In this document: positions 9,668 through 21,546 of the stretch, piece after piece
Layout: the number at the start of each line of letters is the position of its first letter
Position numbering within the stretch: position 1 is the first letter of the stretch
Assembly: GCA_963630675.1 (NCBI GenBank)
Contig: CAVGNR010000009.1
Span: forward strand, 886-64,885
From: Escherichia coli
GTDB lineage: Bacteria > Bacillota_I > Bacilli_A > RFN20 > CAG-826
Direction of reading: 5' to 3'
Length of the DNA: 64,000 bases
Translations under genes and position numbers: made by a program
The notes under the pieces: model-generated
The model's input: only the letters and a program-made list of their open reading frames with translations
What the model was told of the DNA's origin: nothing
The model's database searches: none

Positions 9668-9827
9668 AGTTCATCCTTTATTCAAGCATTGAAACTTTAC
9701 AACAAACGGGACGATTATACAAAGGAAACCGCTTCTATTGTCTCTAAGAGACAAGAAAGGAATGTATTTCTAACGTTTTTTGGCATATACTACAAAGGCT
9801 CAAATAATTGAGCATATGGGGTCGTTC

Positions 9828-10216
9828 TGGTTTTGACGGGGAACCGATCTTGCCTGGACTGCAGTAGCGTGATGAGCTTTAACATCAAAAAACAATAACT
9901 GACAACAGTTATATCTATGCGAACCGCGCTCAACGCGTTTCGTATGCTGCCGCTTAATTAGTAACCTACGGGTTTCCTAGCATCGTCTAGGAGGAGCACG
10001 TCCTCCGTTAGTTTCGCATCTTACTAACGGGCAGGGCGCTAAATAAGATGATAAGCGCCAATCCTTGGCTAGGGAAAGGCGACGAAAACCCTCTTAGCCT
10101 CGCTAATTGGATTTGGTCTTATCGTACCAGTTAGTTAAATTATGATAGGACCTAAACTGTAGAGGTCCTTGTGGGAGATTCTTCGGACAGGGGTTCAATT
10201 CCCCTCGACTCCACCA
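9828..10216 (+). ncRNA. ssrA: tmRNA (ssrA)
   Basis: 5' GGGGTCGTTCTGGTTTTGACGGGG acceptor/TLD start. 3' end GGACAGGGGTTCAATTCCCCTCGACTCCACCA (T-arm plus encoded CCA). The internal tag reading frame ends ...VSYAAA-TAA (GCG 9919 to TAA 9955-9957). Confidence 0.85.
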
Positions 10217-10244
10217 ATAAATGAAATATAATAGGAGTTAGCGT

Positions 10245-11489
10245 ATGTTCTATTGTGATTTTTCTATAACTTTGGATATTGGTACGCTAATAATTGCGAT
10301 ACTTAGTATTATTGCAATAATTGTATATTTTTGTAGCAAAAAAAGATTAAAAAAGTTGAATTTTGATATTGATGAATGCGAACTTGGATTAACAGGCGGG
10401 ACTATTCGTTTAAAATGTAATAAGATTCATCAACAAATTGCTTTTAGAATATGGGTTGATATTAATACTCGGGTTCTTGCAACTAAAATTAATTTAGATG
10501 TTGATAATATACGTGTTATAAATGATTCTTATTATAAGTGTTTTACAGACACTCGTGAATTGTTGAAAGAAATACCGGTTGATAAAATAAATAGCGATAG
10601 TGAATTAGTAAACTTGATTGTAAGGTTTTTAAATGAAGTAATGAGACCATATTTAACAAAATGGGGTGTTCGTTATAATCAATGGTACGATAATAAAATA
10701 GAAAAAGATGGTTTGAAAGGCGATAATCCAGTAGATATTCAAAAGAGTTATTCTGATTATGAAGAGTTATCGAACGATTTGTTATCAATTAATGAAAAAG
10801 TAATAAAATATAGTGATAAATTGCGCGAGATTGCATTTTCTGAAGCTAAGAAAAAAATAAAGGAAGTAAAAAACATGATAAATAGACATAAAGTTTTTAT
10901 AAGTTATTATCACGATGATGACCAGTTTTACAAAAACGAAATAGCAAAATGGAATGAGATTTATAATTTATTTGATGATTATTCTGTAAATGACGGAGAT
11001 ATTGATGATACATATTTAACGGATGAAGCAATCCGTGTAAAAATCAGAGATGAATACATTAAGGATGCCACAGTTTTAGTATTGCTTTGTGGCTGCAATA
11101 CTAAACATAGAAAATACATTGATTGGGAACTACATGCTGCAATGTATGATACTGAAAAGAATCCTAAGATGGGAATTTTAGTGGTTAATTTGCCTTCTTG
11201 TAGAAATAATATTAGAGCTGTTGAGGATAGAGAAAAAGAAATAGTAGCTCCAAACACAAACTGGACCACCTTTACTAAAAGAAGTGAGTACGAGTCTGCA
11301 TATCCAGATTTACCTTCAAGACTAATTGATTCATTGGTTAAAAAGCATTCTGATATTACTTTTGTCAATTGGAATACAATTTCTAATAATCATTTTTTAC
11401 TTCAAGAGTTAGTCGATTTTGCGTATATGAGAAGAAAAACAATAGAATATGATTTATCTGCTCCATTAAGAAGAAAAAATTCAAATTAA
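10245..11489 (+). CDS. membrane-anchored protein with a C-terminal TIR-like (ThsB/DUF1863-like) domain; candidate defense protein
   Basis: N-terminal TM helix (LIIAILSIIAIIVYFC). The C-terminal domain starts KVFISYYHDDD and contains LVLLCGCNTKHRKYIDWELHAAM...MGILVVNLP, which resembles the ThsB/DUF1863 TIR core including a candidate catalytic Glu in the WEL motif. The gene is much more AT-rich than its flanks and starts 28 bp after the tmRNA CCA. Confidence 0.6.
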   Translation: MFYCDFSITLDIGTLIIAILSIIAIIVYFCSKKRLKKLNFDIDECELGLTGGTIRLKCNKIHQQIAFRIWVDINTRVLATKINLDVDNIRVINDSYYKCFTDTRELLKEIPVDKINSDSELVNLIVRFLNEVMRPYLTKWGVRYNQWYDNKIEKDGLKGDNPVDIQKSYSDYEELSNDLLSINEKVIKYSDKLREIAFSEAKKKIKEVKNMINRHKVFISYYHDDDQFYKNEIAKWNEIYNLFDDYSVNDGDIDDTYLTDEAIRVKIRDEYIKDATVLVLLCGCNTKHRKYIDWELHAAMYDTEKNPKMGILVVNLPSCRNNIRAVEDREKEIVAPNTNWTTFTKRSEYESAYPDLPSRLIDSLVKKHSDITFVNWNTISNNHFLLQELVDFAYMRRKTIEYDLSAPLRRKNSN

Positions 11490-11807
11490 TATTAATTATA
11501 GATAAGTGGCTTATACGAATCAGGGTGTGCAGGGGTGTGCATTGTATTAAAATGGTTCATCTTTGCCAAATTTGAAATTGCGGAACGAAACGCTACTGTA
11601 TTGCTATTTGTCAAATAGTAGGGATGCCAAGGCTTTCACCGAAAAGATACATAGCGACTTATTCGGTTATCAATAGTCAAATCGAAGTCACAATTAACGC
11701 TTTCGGAAAAACAAATGATTGCTTTGACCTTTGGGAATGAACTCCTGGAGGTTTTTTGTTTTGGCTATTGCTAACGTCGTATATTTCTTTAGGAATAGCG
11801 ACCTTTC

Positions 11808-12428
11808 GTGTTAGAATGCTCGTATATGAAACACACCCGCAGAAGATCTAAAAAGACCATCTCCAAAAAGTTCGGGGGGGGGTTATTATTTTTTCTCAGT
11901 AGCATCTCTTTGATAGGAGTTGGTTTTTCGAGTTGGGTGATAGGGCCCTTAAGCAGTGCGCAAGTCGACATAAATGTGTATGCAGCCGACATAATCAACG
12001 GTGATTATTTTTCTATATCTACAAATGACATAAAGATGTTCACGCTTGGTCCAAACGGTTTGGTGAAAGACGAAACAATCGTCAACGAATCCTCTATCGA
12101 GATCTCTTTTTACATTAATAACGAAGTAGCTTATCCATCAACCGGTTCGGGACTCCTGAATTTTGAGATGATCCTTTCATGCAGCAGTCAATCTTTCCTG
12201 AATGCCTATATTTCAAATCCAACAATGAACGGAACAACAAACTTATCCTCATCAACGGCTGGTACAGAAATGGTCAGCGATGTGAGCTATACAATATCTG
12301 AAACAGGGAAAACAAAAGCCACAACAATCTATAAAGTAACTGACACAGCGAATGCTGACGGAAAATATATGGCTGATTTATATTATTCAGCCAAACCGAC
12401 TTTTAATTTCAAGGTGAGGGGCAAATAA
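11808..12428 (+). CDS. secreted/membrane-anchored hypothetical protein
   Basis: Basic N-terminus followed by a hydrophobic segment (LLFFLSSISLIGVGFSSWVIG). An alternative start is MKHTRRR at 11826. A 3-nt gap to the next gene suggests an operon. Confidence 0.45.
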   Translation: MLECSYMKHTRRRSKKTISKKFGGGLLFFLSSISLIGVGFSSWVIGPLSSAQVDINVYAADIINGDYFSISTNDIKMFTLGPNGLVKDETIVNESSIEISFYINNEVAYPSTGSGLLNFEMILSCSSQSFLNAYISNPTMNGTTNLSSSTAGTEMVSDVSYTISETGKTKATTIYKVTDTANADGKYMADLYYSAKPTFNFKVRGK

Positions 12429-12430
12429 GA

Positions 12431-14335
12431 ATGGCTAAAACTAGGCTCAACACTTTTTTACTATCTTTAGTTCTTGCAACTTCGACTTTTTTCAATGTCG
12501 GCAAAAGTAATTGGATAATACCTGGCGAAGCAAATGTCGATAACATAACGATAAACAATGGCAGTAGAGCCGTATGCTACAACGGAAGGACCAAAACGAA
12601 GTACACGACAATTGAAAAAGCCTTGGAAGTGGCGAAGAACGATACTGCGAACAATGACACGATATATGTAATCCCAGGCACCAATCCTGTAATCACTAGA
12701 AGTTGCGAGATTGCTAGCGGAGACACTCTTTGCTTGCCTTATGAGGATAATGGCAACGATGTTCATACCTTTCTTAACAGAAACGACACCACAAGCAATG
12801 CGACATTCGGAGACTTGAATTCAGATAATGTTAATAAAAATAGGAAAAATCAAATTACGATCAGAGGAAATGTATCGCTGACAAATAATGGCACTTTAAC
12901 GGTCGGGGGCAGTATTGGATATGGTGGATCAGCCGTTGGCATTACTGGTCAAACCGCAAGCAGCTATTGCGAAATCTTGATGAAGAACAACTCGAAGATT
13001 ATTAACAATGGGAGCATCAATCTATACGGATATATTAAGGAATCTTCAAAAAACAATGGCAGTTATGTTGAACACAAAAATTCATCAGTTATAAAATTGC
13101 CGTTTGTGATTTACGATTTTCGAGGTGGAAGCTATTCCTATGCTTGCTATGGGAAGGATGTGATGCCTTTTAGTAATTATGATTTTCCTAACTGTCAGTC
13201 TTTGCAGAAGTTTTATTATGGTTCCAAAATGTATGGTCTAGCAACGATATATGCAGGCAACTCATGGTCAACGCCTGAGGTTTTGGTTTTAGGAACAGAT
13301 TCAGATTCTTGTTTATTTAGGCTGTCTAATAATTATGCGACTCTTAAATACGCCCCTAGCAACGTTCTTTATACCACGAATGACGTATCAGCATCAACTA
13401 CATTAGAAACCGCTAATTTTACCGAGATTCACACTTTTGGGGATATTTCGCTTTCTAGTTTAAGGATTGAATTAAAGGTTGGTTTGACGATAATGGTTGA
13501 CACATCAAAAATGTATTGTCCTTTGTGTTTCAAATACCAAGTTATAGTTGAACGAGGGACTTTTACTGTGTCAAACAAAATGAAATTTTTGGGTGGAGCT
13601 TCTTTACTGATAAAGCCTGGTGCAACTGTAACATGCAACGCTAACGTCAGTTTTTATCAAGATTACATTCCTAACATAATTACTGGAGGAAGTGATTTAT
13701 ACCCTTCATCTTTTACAACGGCAAATCTTGTTAATAACGGAATTTTGAATCTAAATAGCGCTTTCGGGGGATTGGTAGAGACTTCTGAAATTTCTGGCAG
13801 ACTTAATACAAGCAACGGCTTTTCAGAATCGGTTACTACAATGGAAATCTTATCTTCTAAGGGCAGTAGCATTTTTGCATCGACAGACAAAACAGAAAAC
13901 AAAGTACAAGACGCTTTAGGTTATCTTGGCGCAACAGGAAGACCAAATGAATCAACTATACTTTCTAAATCTAAATCTTTTGAGTCAAAGGGAAATTATT
14001 GGTATTTACCGTTAGCGGATATATCTTCACTTGTCATTTCACCTGATAGCGGTGCTTCTGCCAAAAACTCAATCGGCACTTTCGAATTGAGTGCATTGAT
14101 CTCCCCAATAGAAAATTCCTGTAGCAATATTGTATATCAATGGTCTTGCGATAGTGGGGCAAGTTTAAGTGCAACCGTAGGTCCAAGTACAACTTTAACT
14201 ATGCCTGCTAATGATTCACGCTGGTCTGATAAGGATTATAAAGTTACTTGCGTTGTAACATTCACAAAGTCTGATGGTAAAACAGAAAGCTTAAATGCGA
14301 CTGGTATATATACCGCGACAAAACGGGGATGGTAA
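12431..14335 (+). CDS. secreted right-handed beta-helix (pectate-lyase-like) protein with a C-terminal Ig-like domain
   Basis: Signal peptide MAKTRLNTFLLSLVLATSTFFNV. Asn/Gly-rich repetitive beta-strand periodicity (NNGTLTVGG, NNGSINLYGYI) and an Ig-like tail. Confidence 0.5.
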   Translation: MAKTRLNTFLLSLVLATSTFFNVGKSNWIIPGEANVDNITINNGSRAVCYNGRTKTKYTTIEKALEVAKNDTANNDTIYVIPGTNPVITRSCEIASGDTLCLPYEDNGNDVHTFLNRNDTTSNATFGDLNSDNVNKNRKNQITIRGNVSLTNNGTLTVGGSIGYGGSAVGITGQTASSYCEILMKNNSKIINNGSINLYGYIKESSKNNGSYVEHKNSSVIKLPFVIYDFRGGSYSYACYGKDVMPFSNYDFPNCQSLQKFYYGSKMYGLATIYAGNSWSTPEVLVLGTDSDSCLFRLSNNYATLKYAPSNVLYTTNDVSASTTLETANFTEIHTFGDISLSSLRIELKVGLTIMVDTSKMYCPLCFKYQVIVERGTFTVSNKMKFLGGASLLIKPGATVTCNANVSFYQDYIPNIITGGSDLYPSSFTTANLVNNGILNLNSAFGGLVETSEISGRLNTSNGFSESVTTMEILSSKGSSIFASTDKTENKVQDALGYLGATGRPNESTILSKSKSFESKGNYWYLPLADISSLVISPDSGASAKNSIGTFELSALISPIENSCSNIVYQWSCDSGASLSATVGPSTTLTMPANDSRWSDKDYKVTCVVTFTKSDGKTESLNATGIYTATKRGW

Positions 14336-14504
14336 CTATTTATAATTTTGCTGTCAAGAACAAATTCAGTCTGCTTCTGATATAAGAAGTATTTTTCAAA
14401 AGAAAAACATAGGTTTGATACAATTTGTGTCAGACCTTTTTTCATTGCGGATAGAAATACTTTTTGTCTAATGAAGATGCCGTTAAAAAATAAGGAGGGG
14501 AAAC

Positions 14505-14813
14505 ATGGAAAAGGAATCTTATTTTGATGGTGGTCTTTTACAACAAATCGGTTGGAGCATTCTCGGAGCAATTATCACTGCTTGCACCTTAGGGATTTGC
14601 TATCCTTGGGCAAAATGCATGCTAATTAATTGGGAAGCGGAACACACAGTAATTGAAGGCAAAAGACTTCGTTTTGATGGTCATGCCGCTCAATTATTTG
14701 GAAATTGGATCAAATGGCTTTTACTTACCATTGTTACCTTAGGCATTTATGGTCTTTGGGTTCCAATCAAAATGAAGAAGTGGGTCACAAAACACACCTT
14801 CTTTGTTGAATAA
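14505..14813 (+). CDS. small DUF898 (YjgN-like) membrane protein
   Basis: Two copies of the TLGI(C/Y)xPWA(K)-like motif (TLGICYPWAKCM, TLGIYGLWVPIKMKKW) within hydrophobic helices. Confidence 0.45.
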   Translation: MEKESYFDGGLLQQIGWSILGAIITACTLGICYPWAKCMLINWEAEHTVIEGKRLRFDGHAAQLFGNWIKWLLLTIVTLGIYGLWVPIKMKKWVTKHTFFVE

Positions 14814-15094
14814 GCAAAGCCAAAAACATTACTAATCTTTAAAAAACAAATTCTTATTTTTCGTACGCTTTAGGTGCCTTACGCAATTAAGCGCAATAAG
14901 AAAACAATCGATAAATAGGCGCTTTTAATTTTTTAAGGCGCTTTTTTTGCACATGTGCGCAATAAGAAAGTCACAGCAGTTATATAGAGACGATTGGAAG
15001 GCGTTAGATTCTTGACGTTTTAGTAATTTACGTTCATGAAAGCCCTTTATTTGACAAAATGCAAGAATAAAACGCGTATTTAAGAAACAATCCT

Positions 15095-15125
15095 TGACAT
15101 TGTTTTTATATTTAGTTCAATACCA
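15095..15125 (+). promoter_or_regulatory. promoter-like element upstream of the lipoprotein operon
   Basis: TTGACA at 15095-15100 with an AT-rich spacer and a weak -10. Upstream lie the palindrome TGCACATGTGCA and the duplicated GCGCAATAAGAAA motif (14885-14968). Confidence 0.25.
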
Positions 15126-15147
15126 TTTGCGAAAGGAGCATTTAGAT

Positions 15148-16854
15148 ATGAAAAACAAAATGAAAAACATCTTTATTCCCCTTCTGGCTACTGGTTTATT
15201 GCTAACGAGTTGCAACGGTGGAGAAACCGAATCAAGCAGTTCTAGTGTTATTCCGTCTACTTCCGAAGCAAGTAAGGAACCAACCATCACTAAAAAGTTA
15301 ATTACGAAAGTGGCAGAAGGATGGAAAACTCAATATGAAGTGGGAGATGCTCTCTCCCTAACCGGGTTAACCGTTTCTCTTGAAACCTATTCGGATGACG
15401 TTCTTTCTCAAACGGATGCTGTAACGGATTTCACCTTAACGATCGGTGAAAAGATCGTTCAAGAAGGATATGTCTTTGTTAAAGAGGATATAAACGATGC
15501 CTTAACCTTGTCCGTTCATAAAGACACGTATACTTCAGATTTATCTTTATCTGTCATTGATAAAGCGTATTCCGGGGATACGGTTTATTTACAAGTGCAA
15601 GATGGCACAAGCGAAGGGACATGGAGTTGCTCTCTTGAACAAATTACCGTTAAAAAAGCAAACGGAGAAGAATTAGAAAGCCCTCTTACTCTTCAAAAAG
15701 ATGAAACTGATGGCATTTATTTCTTTGAGATGCCAGAGGCCTCTATCTTATTCACTTTCTCTCCAACGAACGAAAGCAAATACGCTGATCAAGAATTCAT
15801 TGGAAAATACAAAGGGTTTGATTTAAACGGCGCATGGAGTGGAAGTAGTATTTCCTCTTCCGGTGAAGTAAAGGCTAACGGAACGTTTAGCATTACCGTG
15901 GAAGGTGCTGTTATGGATGCTCATTTCGATGATATTGCTTATAAGTTGGATGAGAACGGGAAGATTGCTCTTGATAGCGAAACCTATACCTCAAATACAA
16001 TCTCTTATGATTCTTCCATCCTTCGTTACCACGTTGCTTATTCTAGCTCCACAAATGATACATACGACATCTATTTATTAAAAGGAGCGGAGAACGTAAA
16101 GGTTTCAACCCTTTTTGGAAGTGATGATAAGAATTATGTTCTTGCTCAATTCACTTCTGGAGAAACAACTTATTCCTTCTTATCTATTAAAGAGAAGCTT
16201 TATTGCGGTGTTGAAATTGTTGGTAACAAAGACAATTTACTCTCATCTACCTTATTAACTGTGACTTACGGACAAGAAACGGCGTACTTCAAAAAGAGCG
16301 AGGACTCTCATCAAATTGAAGTGGCTGTAAAAGGCCCTGAAGCAGGCACATATACGTCTAGCGATAATAAATCCCTTGTTCTTGATGGATTTGGTGGATG
16401 TAGCTTAGACGGAGCGAAAGGAAGCTATGTATATGATTCCAAAGAACAGGCTGTAACTGTAACAATTAGCGGAAAAGAAACTATATACACCCTTGATTTA
16501 GAGAAAAAGAGCTTCTCTCCTAAAGCCTTTGCTAACGAAGACCCATGGGCCAACGAAGCTATGACTTACAAGGGAGTTCTTAGTACAAATTTCTTTGAAG
16601 ACGTTCCAATGATTCTAACTTTCAACGCTGGAAAGGTTACTTATAAAGAATATGATAGCGGCTTAGATAATAAGCAATACGATTACACCTTCTCAAATGG
16701 TGTGGTTACCTTCTCTGCGACGAATTATTCAGCAAGCTTGTTTACCTTCAATTTTGCTGTCTCTTCAGATAATTCGACACTTACTTTGAAGGAAAGAGTG
16801 AATGTTCAAGGAAACATCTATTTCCCGAAAAACTTCAAACTTACAAAACAATAA
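15148..16854 (+). CDS. lipoprotein 1 of a tandem array
   Basis: Lipobox LLLTSC plus a Ser-rich linker. RBS AAAGGAG upstream of ATG 15148. Confidence 0.6.
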   Translation: MKNKMKNIFIPLLATGLLLTSCNGGETESSSSSVIPSTSEASKEPTITKKLITKVAEGWKTQYEVGDALSLTGLTVSLETYSDDVLSQTDAVTDFTLTIGEKIVQEGYVFVKEDINDALTLSVHKDTYTSDLSLSVIDKAYSGDTVYLQVQDGTSEGTWSCSLEQITVKKANGEELESPLTLQKDETDGIYFFEMPEASILFTFSPTNESKYADQEFIGKYKGFDLNGAWSGSSISSSGEVKANGTFSITVEGAVMDAHFDDIAYKLDENGKIALDSETYTSNTISYDSSILRYHVAYSSSTNDTYDIYLLKGAENVKVSTLFGSDDKNYVLAQFTSGETTYSFLSIKEKLYCGVEIVGNKDNLLSSTLLTVTYGQETAYFKKSEDSHQIEVAVKGPEAGTYTSSDNKSLVLDGFGGCSLDGAKGSYVYDSKEQAVTVTISGKETIYTLDLEKKSFSPKAFANEDPWANEAMTYKGVLSTNFFEDVPMILTFNAGKVTYKEYDSGLDNKQYDYTFSNGVVTFSATNYSASLFTFNFAVSSDNSTLTLKERVNVQGNIYFPKNFKLTKQ

Positions 16855-16866
16855 AAAAGGAGAAAC

Positions 16867-17644
16867 AATGAAAAATAATATTAAATTCTTAATTCTGCCA
16901 TTGGCTGCAACATTATTGGCTTCATGCCAAAGCAATTCCTCCGAGGAATCTTCTTCAGAGAATAGCGTATCTTCTGAAGTCACACAAAAGGTTGATACAA
17001 CTCTTTTAGAAGTGAAAACAACGATCAATGGTTGCAATGTCTCTGGAGTTAGCGTGGATATTTCTCAAGGCATTGGAACAGTGCTAGTCACTGGGCAAAG
17101 CTATGATATGAAAGTGAGCGTTACCGATAAAGGTGGGGACGTTACTCCAACTTATAGCCAAGAGGGAATTATTTCTTTTGAGAAAAAATCCTCGGAAACA
17201 TACACCTTAAAAGCCTTAAAAGCAGGGGGTGTTACTCTTTCTTTGAAAGATAAAGACGACATTACGGTATACCGTTGTGTAATCAATGTTCGTGATCCTC
17301 TTGCTCCGACAGAGCTCACAAACTTCATTATTGAAACGGTTGATCATTATCAAACGACCTTCCAAAACGCTTCATACAATTACAGCATCTCTTTTGTTAG
17401 CAACACTGAAGGCGTTTTAAAAGGAAAAGAGGAAGGCAATACTTACAACACCTCTTTCACCTATACCTTAGGAGAAAAACCAGTACGTCTTTCTAATTTC
17501 TATGGTTATGAATTAAACATCACCATGGATGAAGCCAACGAGAACCTTACTTTTGGTGCTTCCTATATTTCTGCCAACGGATTCAATATGTTGCCATTCG
17601 ATAAAGGAGGATCCGTGCTTGGCTTCTTTGCCGCTAAATTTTAA
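16867..17644 (+). CDS. lipoprotein 2
   Basis: MKNNIKFLILPLAATLLASCQSN lipobox plus Ser/Glu-rich linker. RBS AAAAGGAG. Confidence 0.6.
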
Positions 17645-17659
17645 TGAGGAGAACACAAT

Positions 17660-20236
17660 ATGAATAAAAAGAGACTATTACCTTTATTCCTTTTAAGTAG
17701 TGCTTTCATTCTTGTTTCATGCACATCTAATAATCCAGATGTTCCATCAAGTGGAAATGGCACCAACTCAAGTCAGAATTCGGCTTCTTCGGGTGGAACC
17801 CTTGCACCTGTGGAAGAATATTTTAAAGTCACTTCTAGAAGCGATACCCGTTACACATTATCCCCAAATAAAACCAGCGCCAAAGTAGGCGAGACGATTT
17901 CTGTTACTGCCACCGTTCAAGATGGTTATAGTGTGATTGCCGTTTATGCAAACAGCCAAAAATTAGAAAAGAGCGGGGACGTGTATACGTTTACCATGCC
18001 AGAAATCGACGTTGTTTTACGTGCGGAACTCTCTGTTGAAGGAGAAATCACCGCTCAAGGCGGAGATGTTGCAGTCGCCTTTAAAAAAGCGGAAGGCTCT
18101 GACACGTTATGGGTTGCAAAAGGAGTGAAAATCAATAACACTTCCAGCTTCTCCGTCAAAGTAGGGAAAACCACTCTTAGCATTGTTAATGTTGATCGTT
18201 TCCGTTGCTTTGCTCCAATTGAAGCAAGTTATTCTTCTTCTGGTGGCAATCTTTCCTTGCCAGGAGGAGCAACCTATGACTTCTATTATGACTCTAGTTT
18301 AGATCGCCCTCTTTATTTCAAACGTACTAGCGTGGATGTTTTGCCTTCTAACGCTTCCACGTTGGAAAATATGTTCCATAGTTCTGTTCAATCGGAATAT
18401 GCGTTATATCCTTCCAATGTGAAGAAAGTTACTTATTCTAATTCTTCAAGCGCTGAAAAATACGTTTGGCAAGCTTATGAAAATAATGCTTCCTTAGCCA
18501 CCGTTACGAACACAAAAACAAATACTGAAAAAGCTTTTGTTTATAAGAGTTTTGACAAAAGTAGCAACATCTACACAGTCGTTGATAGTTATTTGGAAGC
18601 AGCTAATGACAGCACAAAATTGGACGATACCGATGAATTCTCTGGAAAATATTTAGCTGTAGATAATCCATATGATGACAATGCCGTGGACTATAGCAGA
18701 CAAGAGGTAGGGAAAGAGGCTGCTTTATTCGACAGCACTCATTATTCCCATGATATGAATTCCATCGATTTCGATATCATGTATGCCTATCGTGTAAATA
18801 TGACACAAGGTGATGAATTTGTTTTAGCAGAATGTAATGTCACCTCAGCAAAAACAGATAATGGTTTCCAAACCAGGATTGATTCCAGACTCACCTATGA
18901 TTCTTCTAAGAACGCACAATTAACCGAAGAATTAAAGTATCATGATGAATTTGCCGTTACCTTGAATTTCAATGCGGATGGCTCTCTTTTAAGCGGAAGC
19001 TATCTTAATACAAGATATGACGCTTTGGGATACGATTTTACAAACGAAAAGATTACCAACGAGAAGAATGGAAAGGCTGTTAAAGAACTCTCTTTCTCTT
19101 ATGAATATGGAAATCCAGAAAGTAAGCCAGCAGAAGGCATCCGTGATGTTTCTCAGTATTTCCTTTCTTCTTCCACTTTGACGAAAGATACGGTTACTTT
19201 AGCGGATAGCAGTGTCGTTTCCGAAACAGATACGAATAAAAACAAACTCCATCAAGGAGACAAGATCGATAATTCTAATATTGATGATTATTTAACCATC
19301 AACGCTCCTAAAACCGTTTGGGACACCTGGCAATATACACTTACTGCATCAAGTGATCAAAACGTACTTGGATATAATGCCAGCACAAATACCTGGAGAG
19401 CTAAAACCACAGGAAGCACGGTTGTAACCATTTCTAATAAAACGGATAGGACCGTGAGCTTGGATTTGAATGTAGACGTGGTCTATATGGCAACCATTGG
19501 ATCTTTCTATTTCGACCATAACTATGATGCAGGCGATTATGGTGCAGACGATCACGCTCAAAAAGCGGTTGCCTTCGTTGGCTCACAAGCGACTTATCGT
19601 TTGATTGCCTCTGGTGAAAAAGGAACACCATGGGCTAAGAAAGATATCCCTCTTCCTTCTGATTTGAAGTTAAAAGCAAACGGAAATGACTATGGTTTGA
19701 CCTATTCTATCGATTGGGCAACTGGTGATATTACTTTTGATGGCAGCAAAGTCACAGGAGTGGAGAAGAACCAATCCGTTACCATTGTCTATACCCCAGA
19801 AACAAGCCACGCCCAAGAAGGTGGATTATCTTCTAGTTCTACTTTAACCATTACTTTGAAAAATCTTGCTTATACGGCAGAAGATATTAAAGGAACTTAT
19901 ACCAATACAGAGAACTCTGCCACTTTGAAATTAACAGGTGAAGAAGCAGGCAGCCTTGCTACGAATAATACTCCTTATAAAGGCAGTGTTGCCGTAGGAA
20001 CAAAGACCTATGATTTCTCCTATGGCTTTAACGCTTACAGTTTAGCTCTCCCTCTCCATTTTGCTGATTCCAACATTGATGGAAAGATGACTTTCAAAGA
20101 AGATGGAACCGTTGCTGTCATTATGGAAAGCGTATCCTATTCCGGAGAAGATACAGGCGCTACATCCACAAGCATTCTTGGATCCTTTGCAACCGATGAG
20201 ACCGCTGAAAGCGAAGCCATCTTTACGAGGGCTTAA
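17660..20236 (+). CDS. large lipoprotein 3 (858 aa)
   Basis: LLSSAFILVSCTSN lipobox and a Ser/Gly/Asn-rich linker; no catalytic motif recognised. Confidence 0.6.
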   Translation: MNKKRLLPLFLLSSAFILVSCTSNNPDVPSSGNGTNSSQNSASSGGTLAPVEEYFKVTSRSDTRYTLSPNKTSAKVGETISVTATVQDGYSVIAVYANSQKLEKSGDVYTFTMPEIDVVLRAELSVEGEITAQGGDVAVAFKKAEGSDTLWVAKGVKINNTSSFSVKVGKTTLSIVNVDRFRCFAPIEASYSSSGGNLSLPGGATYDFYYDSSLDRPLYFKRTSVDVLPSNASTLENMFHSSVQSEYALYPSNVKKVTYSNSSSAEKYVWQAYENNASLATVTNTKTNTEKAFVYKSFDKSSNIYTVVDSYLEAANDSTKLDDTDEFSGKYLAVDNPYDDNAVDYSRQEVGKEAALFDSTHYSHDMNSIDFDIMYAYRVNMTQGDEFVLAECNVTSAKTDNGFQTRIDSRLTYDSSKNAQLTEELKYHDEFAVTLNFNADGSLLSGSYLNTRYDALGYDFTNEKITNEKNGKAVKELSFSYEYGNPESKPAEGIRDVSQYFLSSSTLTKDTVTLADSSVVSETDTNKNKLHQGDKIDNSNIDDYLTINAPKTVWDTWQYTLTASSDQNVLGYNASTNTWRAKTTGSTVVTISNKTDRTVSLDLNVDVVYMATIGSFYFDHNYDAGDYGADDHAQKAVAFVGSQATYRLIASGEKGTPWAKKDIPLPSDLKLKANGNDYGLTYSIDWATGDITFDGSKVTGVEKNQSVTIVYTPETSHAQEGGLSSSSTLTITLKNLAYTAEDIKGTYTNTENSATLKLTGEEAGSLATNNTPYKGSVAVGTKTYDFSYGFNAYSLALPLHFADSNIDGKMTFKEDGTVAVIMESVSYSGEDTGATSTSILGSFATDETAESEAIFTRA

Positions 20237-20238
20237 AA

Positions 20239-21546
20239 ATGAGAAAAAATTTAGCACTCTTCCTTCTCTCTCCTTTGTTTCTTGTTTCTTGCTCTGCTCC
20301 TGAAGCTTCCTCTTCAGAAGATACGGCTCCAAAAACTTGTTTAGGAGCGTTGAAACAATTAGAGGGTCTAACGAATTACACCTTGGTTTCCGCTAAAAAT
20401 TCCTCTCCCATCAAGGAAGAACATATCACGGAGAAATACTACGAAAACAACTACACGGGGTACTTATCTGTAAAAGGTGGAGTTTGTTCTTTCGAATACG
20501 ATGGAACAACCCTTACGAAGTCTGCTTTGCTTAAAAAAGAAGGTGTAGCACTTACCTTAAAGGATTTTGTTCCTTCCTTTGAAGGGGTTAATTATTCTTC
20601 TTTGGAAGGAAAAACGGATATGACATTAGATTTAAAAACCAAATCCATTGCCACTCGTTTGCTACCAAAGATTGGTTTTTCCGCGACCGATTACACTTCG
20701 CTTGTTTCGCTTAACGCAACTCTTGAAGATGAGACAACGTTAAATGGTTTCCATTTTGATCTTTCTTTTGATAATAAGACCAACTACACCATTACCTTTA
20801 AAGATGTTGGAAAGACTTCTGTTTCTTTCTTAGAGAACGCTTTAAAAGAAAATGATGAAGCGTTTACTCCAACCGAAACAGAGCAAGCCATCACTGACTT
20901 ATTTGCTCTTGATAATTTCACTCAGTATCGTGATTTAACTGGAAACAATGTCATGGATACGATGGATTATTTCACTGAGCAGTATTTCTTAACGGATTTC
21001 ACTTCCGAATATGCTGCAGAAAATCCTGAAACAGCAGCTGCGTATACCAAAGGATTCCTTGGCATTGAAAATAAAAAGATGACCTATGGCGGAAAAGAAT
21101 TAACCTTCCAGGGCACTTATATGTTTTATAAAGATACAAGCGCCCTTGTGCCTTCTTTGTATCTTGTGACAAGAGAGAATCCTTCAAAACCGGGATATGC
21201 AGAACCTTCATTTAAAGACAATGATTCCTCTGATGTCGTAAGCATCATGAATTATCCAAAGAATCTTATGGCCTTGAACCATTGGGAACTCTTTACGGAT
21301 AATAAAGATGATTCCTTCACGACAGATAATATGTCGATCCTTGTTGATTTCTCTAAAAGCTTTGCTCTTGAGGAAACAGGAAATAGCTTGTCCCATCTCG
21401 ATATCATTTACGATAAAGATGAGGGAAAGGTTACAATGAATCTCTACCGCAAGGAAGGAAATTATTACGAATATGTCTTTGCTGACTTTGGTAAAACCTC
21501 TGTCAGTTGGGTTGACAGCTTCATTCGTAAAAACAAACTTGCTTAA
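20239..21546 (+). CDS. lipoprotein 4
   Basis: LSPLFLVSCSAPEASSSED lipobox; 2-nt gap to the preceding gene. Confidence 0.6.
   Translation: MRKNLALFLLSPLFLVSCSAPEASSSEDTAPKTCLGALKQLEGLTNYTLVSAKNSSPIKEEHITEKYYENNYTGYLSVKGGVCSFEYDGTTLTKSALLKKEGVALTLKDFVPSFEGVNYSSLEGKTDMTLDLKTKSIATRLLPKIGFSATDYTSLVSLNATLEDETTLNGFHFDLSFDNKTNYTITFKDVGKTSVSFLENALKENDEAFTPTETEQAITDLFALDNFTQYRDLTGNNVMDTMDYFTEQYFLTDFTSEYAAENPETAAAYTKGFLGIENKKMTYGGKELTFQGTYMFYKDTSALVPSLYLVTRENPSKPGYAEPSFKDNDSSDVVSIMNYPKNLMALNHWELFTDNKDDSFTTDNMSILVDFSKSFALEETGNSLSHLDIIYDKDEGKVTMNLYRKEGNYYEYVFADFGKTSVSWVDSFIRKNKLA

Follow-up and report, generated by a model that had tools for sequence, protein, structure and literature searches.

A type VI-like Thoeris cassette in which thsG and thsB were probably joined in one reading frame by a 4-nt deletion

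The stretch of DNA analyzed here (the window) comprises 64,000 nt of contig CAVGNR010000009.1 in assembly GCA_963630675.1. Its forward strand carries an open reading frame (ORF) at 10245–11489 that starts with ATG, encodes 414 amino acids (aa) and exists as first described. The ORF has two parts, a transmembrane (TM) helix with a helical domain behind it and a TIR protein (Table 1), which resemble the two proteins of type VI Thoeris. That defense system consists of ThsB and ThsG, the latter annotated as DUF6650 and equipped in some cases, but not all, with TM helices at its N terminus (Yirmiya et al., bioRxiv 10.64898/2025.12.03.692087). The ORF very probably represents thsG and thsB of a type VI-like Thoeris cassette joined in frame by a deletion of 4 nt. 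Whether it arose by recent mutation within a single strain or population or reflects an error in sequencing, the fusion is not a conserved architecture.

Table 1. Features of the thsG-thsB cassette and its immediate surroundings, in window coordinates
Feature	Position	Strand	Basis or remark
tmRNA (ssrA) gene	9818..10216	+	ARAGORN, tag peptide DNSYIYANRAQRVSYAAA; Rfam RF00023, 135.5 bits, E 2.7e-54
Promoter-like TCGACT-16-TATAAT	10205..10232	+	Consensus scan, weak evidence only; overlaps tmRNA 3′ end
thsG-thsB cassette	10219..11568	+	~1.35 kb; stretch shared (blastn) with relatives that have the cassette at another chromosomal site
thsG-equivalent part (residues 1–210)	10245..10874	+	TM helix and DUF6650-like helical domain; stand-alone homologues, hhalign, BLASTP
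Single TM helix (residues 12–30)	10278..10334	+	Hydropathy peak, AlphaFold2; KKRLKK directly after
Folded helical bundle of ThsG-like domain (residues ~61–197)	10425..10835	+	AlphaFold2; conserved alignment columns
Site of frame-fusing 4-nt deletion	10851..10858	+	Alignments with L005
thsB Shine-Dalgarno AAGGAAG (10860–10866) and ATG (10875–10877)	10860..10877	+	Sequence; intact inside the fused ORF
thsB (residues 211–414)	10875..11489	+	204-aa TIR protein; PF08937, identical to P0214
thsB catalytic-type Glu codon (E85 of ThsB, E295 of the fusion)	11127-11129	+	Alignments
Terminator-like hairpin followed by T-run	11726..11753	+	Consensus scan; downstream of the cassette

Searches with the full-length protein returned TIR proteins alone, each covering approximately half of the query and none exceeding 50% coverage. 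With residues 1–215 as the query, stand-alone proteins of 200–225 aa were found at 99% down to 36% identity, and the wider homologue set of the N-terminal half consists of stand-alone proteins of 200–230 aa that extend from 99% down to 25% identity. An exhaustive HMMER scan (E ≤ 1e-3) gave at least 449 clusters at 50% identity, nearly all of ~200–230 aa. A collection of species genomes, one genome per species, was scanned with a 34-sequence alignment and contained relatives in at least 201 species; the locus counts given here for TIR distance and fusion refer to the best 80 of the 201 species-genome loci. In the related loci L001, L002, and L004, a TIR gene (172 aa), a TM protein gene (214 aa), and a second TIR gene (205 aa) follow one another and are called separately, the last two overlapping by 11 nt (ATGATAA[A/G]TAG). 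This is the usual thsG/thsB overlap (ATGATAAATAG), and the two genes are separately called and overlapping in relatives L001–L005. Separate ThsB and ThsG polypeptides, as in type VI Thoeris, are thus encoded in L001–L005 and in all 80 of the species-genome loci, but not in the window. From M211 onward, the window protein has the same 204 residues as P0214, a stand-alone protein encoded on six contigs, and the region of the thsB ribosome-binding site and start codon is identical to that of relatives having thsB as a separate gene.

The closest relative, L005, carries a 214-aa gene followed by a TIR gene, unfused, and has the same tmRNA-thsG junction as the window. Over 1026 nt it shares 99.1% identity with the window (blastn), with a 4-nt gap as the sole indel, and in the alignment five substitutions separate the fused from the unfused allele. 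At the deletion site the window reads G-A7-T where L005 reads G-A7-C-AAA-T, and the loss of 4 nt shifts thsG into the frame of thsB. The resulting ORF is uninterrupted across both halves, without secondary damage, and the TM-ThsG-ThsB chimera has a predicted size of 47 kDa. This 414-aa form is known from one sample, in the NCBI record and in the Logan assembly of SRR13434651, whose contig and the window show 100% identity across 4245 nt. No fused ORF was observed in the species-genome loci (0/80), no other ThsG-ThsB fusion was found among the 449 family clusters or in the full-length protein search, and viral contigs gave 0 exact matches to the fused junction. A preliminary description of the locus had proposed a self-contained, single-chain sensor-effector. 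What it described are two genes, separate in every relative examined and joined by the 4-nt deletion, and the single-polypeptide state characterizes the window allele rather than the family.

The 3′ tail of thsG is A-rich and prone to indels among natural alleles (window 10840–10885; L001:6600–6650; L005:790–835). Alleles ending in ...KKKTNKGSKKHDK and ...KKKRIKEVKKHDK ahead of the stop codon use two frames with compensating indels. Of the two natural Lys-rich tails, TNKGSKKHDK and RIKEVKKHDK, each always ends with the TAG that lies within the ATGATAAATAG overlap. Were the A7 run of the window to slip by +1, a normal stand-alone ThsG would be restored.

The C-terminal half was examined with profiles and a structural model. 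Residues 218–318 match the Pfam family ThsB_TIR (PF08937; E 8.6e-17, score 61.8 bits, gathering cutoff 21.2). The PADLOC ThsB models and the candidate model PDC-M50B also match the TIR region, and NCBIfam gave no match to the window protein. The AlphaFold2 model of residues 211–414 has a confidence (predicted local distance difference test, pLDDT) of 91.8, and its best fold matches in the PDB are EcThsB (8wcf), the TIRs of plant RPS4/RRS1, 3hyn, and ThsB-Tad3. D83-W84-E85 of ThsB is invariant in one alignment (A8), and E85 is also invariant in a second (A6). On sequence and model, the TIR half is identified as ThsB-type, with a conserved catalytic-type glutamate and a predicted TIR (flavodoxin-like) fold. 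Members of the same TIR clade (HKVFISYYH...DWEI) occur elsewhere with other N-terminal partners: a multi-TM module in P0005, P0012, and P0013 (340 aa), and a SLOG domain (PF18163) in P0019 (457 aa), both of them genuine alternative fusions.

In the N-terminal half, Kyte-Doolittle windows of 19 residues exceed 1.6 only at starts 1–17 and peak at 2.82 for residues 12–30, in agreement with a helix predicted by AlphaFold2 at residues 12–31. Since the helix is followed by KKRLKK, the positive-inside rule predicts that the C terminus and the bulk of the protein are cytoplasmic. Beyond the TM helix, the model, built from the 34-sequence alignment, contains a weakly predicted hairpin (residues 40–58) and a helical bundle (61–197). 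The helices of the bundle span residues 61–75, 89–108, 119–153, 162–167, and 172–197, with pLDDT mostly 84–96 across the block. Conserved residues in the alignments of this domain are T75, R76, R104, L129, N130, R134, L137, T138, W147, and Q166.

The relationship of this domain to ThsG was revealed by profile comparison. With hhalign, the family profile aligned to ThsG of the validated Bacillus-scaffold system (scaffold Ga0102589, L020:2718–3239, adjoining the tested ThsB) at a probability of 98.6% (E 9.5e-16, 153 columns). It aligned at a probability of 98.1% (E 1.3e-13, 142 columns) to an effector on the chromosome of E. coli strain A14 (L019:1770–2501), which lies beside a ThsB 98.3% identical to the tested ThsB of ACN001. 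The chromosomal copy served as the reference in place of the type VI copy on E. coli plasmid p13TMH22-1, a degraded copy whose TIR is frameshifted and whose effector is missing. A direct BLASTP comparison of the window protein with the Bacillus ThsG gave an E of 8e-11, and in the multiple alignment with validated ThsG the sequences stay collinear between the ...ELxTR motif and the C terminus, LRPxL(T/A)KW included. Judged by sequence, the middle domain and the type VI Thoeris effector ThsG (DUF6650) are homologues.

These results bear on most of what the preliminary description had said of the protein. The N-terminal TM anchor it placed at residues ~12–30 is borne out by the hydropathy peak and the modeled helix, and the C-terminal TIR domain, called ThsB-type and Thoeris-related, by the PF08937 match, the fold, and the glutamate. 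Its statement that the middle domain has no recognizable motifs is correct for Pfam, NCBIfam, and PADLOC, which gave no family match to residues 1–210, but not for profile comparison, by which the domain is ThsG-like. Among 94 family members, too, Pfam and PADLOC returned no meaningful family; weak matches of the N-terminal family to DUF5036, DUF5703, and Occludin were dismissed as noise. That the middle region might be a low-complexity linker is ruled out by confidently modeled helices conserved in the 449 protein clusters. The domain had also been proposed as the phage-sensing module, a role that does not fit its homology to ThsG, a signal-activated effector, since in type VI systems the TIR alone responds to infection. 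The suggestion of a membrane-acting effector agrees with the ThsG homology and the TM anchor.

Genomic linkage ties the family to TIR genes. A TIR ORF lies within 4 kb of the ThsG-like gene in 77 of the 80 loci and within 150 nt in 61 of them. In metagenomic contigs of different lineages and on an Aureispira plasmid, the ThsG-like gene stands beside one to four ThsB-type TIR genes. The family ranges over Bacilli, Clostridia, Alpha- and Gammaproteobacteria, Bacteroidota, Saccharibacteria/Patescibacteria, and Melainabacteria, and includes one Altiarchaeales metagenome-assembled genome (MAG); the close relatives come from MAGs labeled as uncultured Bacilli, one of them from yak rumen. In the plasmid locus (Aureispira sp. 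CCB-E, NZ_CP133672.1, 45594–54190; L015), a row of four TIR genes, one encoding 686 aa, precedes a ThsG homologue, after which comes an IS4 transposase; a Cas6 gene lies nearby. One of the four TIRs shares 45% identity with the type VI ThsB of Bacillus. In two further loci (L009:1892–5615 and L010:1400–5124), the ThsG homologue P0052 comes right after genes for Nmad2, HMUDK_hel (5-hydroxymethyluracil kinase-like), and thymidylate synthase, and the sole TIR gene is 3 kb upstream on a contig that resembles a conjugative element. Thoeris parts beside nucleotide-modification genes are an unusual pairing. Five IMG/VR viral contigs (L143–L147) encode distant ThsG relatives of 26%–36% identity, which by sequence is consistent with occasional carriage of ThsG-like genes on phages or prophages. 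The E. coli type VI system adjoins phage portal and terminase genes.

In type VI Thoeris, infection leads ThsB to produce 2′cADPR (a form of cyclic ADP-ribose, cADPR), and growth is arrested via ThsG (bioRxiv 10.64898/2025.12.03.692087), a protein termed "membrane-spanning" in a later preprint (bioRxiv 10.64898/2026.06.15.732069). The steps that follow have been shown by experiment for the validated homologues and are carried over to the window locus by homology. Cytoplasmic ThsB would detect phage infection and convert nicotinamide adenine dinucleotide (NAD+) into a cyclic ADP-ribose signal, most likely 2′cADPR if the validated type VI systems are a guide. The signal would bind the cytoplasmic DUF6650-like helical domain of ThsG, held at the membrane by the N-terminal TM helix. 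R76, R104, and R134 are candidates for a positively charged signal pocket. In the literature ThsG is modeled as a closed homo-hexameric tube with positively charged pockets between protomers, and the three conserved arginines are compatible with such a pocket, although this proves nothing. ThsG, predicted to oligomerize, would upon activation arrest growth, probably by compromising the membrane, and phage replication would stop. Instead of the depletion of NAD in cis envisaged in the preliminary description, the expected outcome is an arrest of growth brought about by the membrane protein ThsG. In the window allele the thsG frame runs into thsB, which would attach ThsB to the C terminus of ThsG; translation from the intact internal ribosome-binding site and ATG can probably still supply free ThsB.

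Comparison with the known Thoeris types places the system closest to type VI. A ThsB-type TIR gene lies directly beside, and overlaps, a small effector gene; the cytoplasmic domain of the effector is homologous to ThsG in the hhalign comparisons; an N-terminal TM anchor is present as in the "DUF6650 and TM" variants; and the whole forms a compact, mobile cassette. It differs in the low identity of both proteins to the validated ones, and in having one TM helix, as against a longer hydrophobic N terminus in the proteins from E. coli and Listeria. The host here is an uncultured lineage of Bacilli, and in the window the two genes form a single ORF. Type I Thoeris (ThsB with the SIR2-SLOG protein ThsA) has the same kind of signal generator, ThsB_TIR (PF08937), but no SIR2 or SLOG domain was found in the ORF or in the eight flanking ORFs scanned, and the window system is not expected to act by depleting NAD+. 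Type II (ThsB with a TM-Macro effector and a histidine-ADPR signal) follows the same logic, in which an ADPR-derived signal made by a TIR acts on an effector that is TM-anchored, has a ligand-binding domain in the cytoplasm, and causes death or arrest of the cell. The type II effector is nonetheless unrelated to the present family, because the sensor domain of the latter is modeled as all-helical and neither the window protein nor the 94 family members have a Macro match in Pfam or PADLOC. The ThsF/DUF2270 effector of type V, the ThsH/SLATT effector of type VII, and the TM effectors of cyclic-oligonucleotide-based antiphage signaling systems (CBASS) are likewise small membrane proteins predicted to oligomerize and to breach the membrane on a nucleotide signal. 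TIRs of cluster 2741407742, which is listed with a DUF2270 partner, share the HKVFISYYH start of the window ThsB. The window protein has one TM helix, in contrast to three in ThsF and several spans in SLATT proteins, and Pfam gave no DUF2270 (PF10028) or SLATT match in the window protein or the 94 family members. The window system is a divergent type VI-like Thoeris system carrying a one-off frame fusion.

Several observations weigh against the assignment to type VI with a 2′cADPR signal. Identity to validated ThsG is ~21%–22% and that of ThsB to validated type VI ThsB 30%–34%, and the signal could for this reason differ from 2′cADPR. The Pfam family PF20355 (DUF6650) has no match to the window protein or the 94 family members. 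The validated ThsG proteins are also unmatched, however, and the missing match is therefore uninformative: in the type VI study set, the same Pfam copy gives no DUF6650 match at E ≤ 0.01 for the Bacillus-scaffold proteins (L020:2718–3239, L023:3526–4041) or at E ≤ 1 for the E. coli protein (L019:1770–2501), so that screens based on Pfam would miss the ThsG family. Structure prediction and a Foldseek search had been put forward in the preliminary description for the middle domain. The first gave a folded helical bundle, but the PDB matches of the ThsG-like model were generic helical bundles alone (designed proteins, FAT domains; E ≥ 0.2) and were not used. The TIR cluster 2741407742, moreover, is listed with both type V (3′cADPR; DUF2270) and type VI (DUF6650) effectors (Table S1 of bioRxiv 10.64898/2025.12.03.692087). 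Together with the presence, in this subfamily, of a single TM helix and of a conserved Trp and Gln that are absent from the TM-less Bacillus ThsG, the low identities and the mixed cluster leave some room for a distinct Thoeris type, whose ThsG-like family would answer to 3′cADPR, canonical cADPR, or a new molecule. This is regarded as possible but rather doubtful, since the entire cytoplasmic domain aligns collinearly with homologous ThsG and the TR, R104, and LRPxL(T/A)KW motifs are shared, and since on the Aureispira plasmid a family member follows the TIR with 45% identity to the type VI ThsB of Bacillus. A different division of labor, in which the TIR half depletes NAD+ and the N-terminal half is a mere anchor or regulator, would make the protein a TM-TIR abortive-infection protein. 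Some bacterial TIRs are indeed NADase effectors (bioRxiv 10.64898/2025.12.03.692087) and the catalytic-type glutamate is present. Such a protein is nevertheless very improbable here: the TIR is a separate, small ThsB-type protein in all relatives, often in 2–4 copies around one ThsG-like gene, which is the pattern of Thoeris signaling, and the Pfam match is to ThsB_TIR with ThsB proteins as the closest folds.

The type VI-like assignment leaves the status of the fusion itself to be considered. Assemblies made from one and the same run cannot separate a real deletion from an error. If the gap were an error of sequencing or assembly in an A-rich, low-complexity tract, thsG and thsB would be separate in the organism. 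The indel does fall in the G-A7-(CAAA)-T tract, the fused protein comes from a single sample, and L005 is unfused and otherwise nearly identical. A loss of 4 nt is, however, unlike the typical single-base homopolymer error, and real indels occur in natural alleles of the thsG tail; the NCBI and Logan assemblies also agree perfectly, though probably from the same reads. An artifact therefore seems unlikely, but not so unlikely as to be disregarded. At the other extreme, the fusion could be genuine and work as a Thoeris system in a single chain, its TIR and membrane effector tethered together and the signal both made and sensed in cis. In its favor, both halves of the ORF are intact, the variable Lys-rich tail of thsG could act as a linker (modeled residues 200–208 have pLDDT < 50), and the same TIR clade accepts other N-terminal fusions, as in the multi-TM-TIR and SLOG-TIR proteins. 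Yet no further ThsG-ThsB fusion turned up in the genomes, clusters, or protein search, and an allele five substitutions away from the unfused form has had no time for selection. A 24-kDa C-terminal appendage on each protomer may, in addition, not fit the closed hexameric tube of ThsG. A system of this kind is improbable, and there is only a slim chance that a real deletion produced a functional TM-ThsG-ThsB chimera, that is, a natural single-polypeptide Thoeris with its signal produced and sensed at one complex. On this improbable reading, slippage of RNA polymerase or of the ribosome in the A7 tract might in addition give rise to fused and split proteins side by side. Should the fused allele be functional, it would provide a natural, ready-made experiment on the question of whether a TIR of Thoeris can act when tethered to its effector.

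The joining of thsG and thsB at this locus illustrates that what looks like a novel domain architecture can turn out to be two overlapping defense genes, fused in frame on a single occasion. A check of close relatives at the DNA level resolves such architectures, and calls from single assemblies warrant caution. A large family invisible to Pfam (at least 449 clusters, with relatives in at least 201 species genomes) is now placed in the ThsG effector family. Its size suggests that signaling of the 2′cADPR type may be more widespread than reported, although this count and the 255 type VI operons found by the describing preprint in its own genome set (bioRxiv 10.64898/2025.12.03.692087) come from different datasets.

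The cassette starts 3 nt past the 3′ end of the tmRNA gene, both in the window and in L005. The promoter-like site is 13 nt upstream of the thsG ATG, with an AGGAG Shine-Dalgarno sequence between them. In L001, L004, and L063 the cassette is 89.7% identical over 1358 nt (blastn) and sits after tRNA-Ala and the extra 172-aa TIR gene (L001:4415–7322). The occurrence of the same cassette at tmRNA and tRNA-Ala sites implies mobility between positions adjacent to RNA genes. GC content is 0.31 at 10–11 kb, compared with ~0.38 around it. No att-like direct repeat of the tmRNA 3′ end of ≥12 nt was found downstream, and no integrase gene flanks the cassette. One flank has housekeeping genes (GdpP, L9, DnaB, a metallo-β-lactamase-fold hydrolase, and an RlmH-like protein) and the other unannotated surface-like proteins; the eight flanking ORFs scanned contain no defense components. 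A tRNA-Asp (with ATC, an unusual anticodon) called by ARAGORN at 21259–21330 on the reverse strand has no Rfam tRNA match at E ≤ 1 and is probably a false positive. Five large forward-strand ORFs at 11808–20236 (206, 634, 586, 280, and 858 aa) have no Pfam or PADLOC match. Several of them have N termini resembling signal peptides or lipoproteins, as well as Ser/Thr-rich regions, and they are probably lineage-specific surface proteins.

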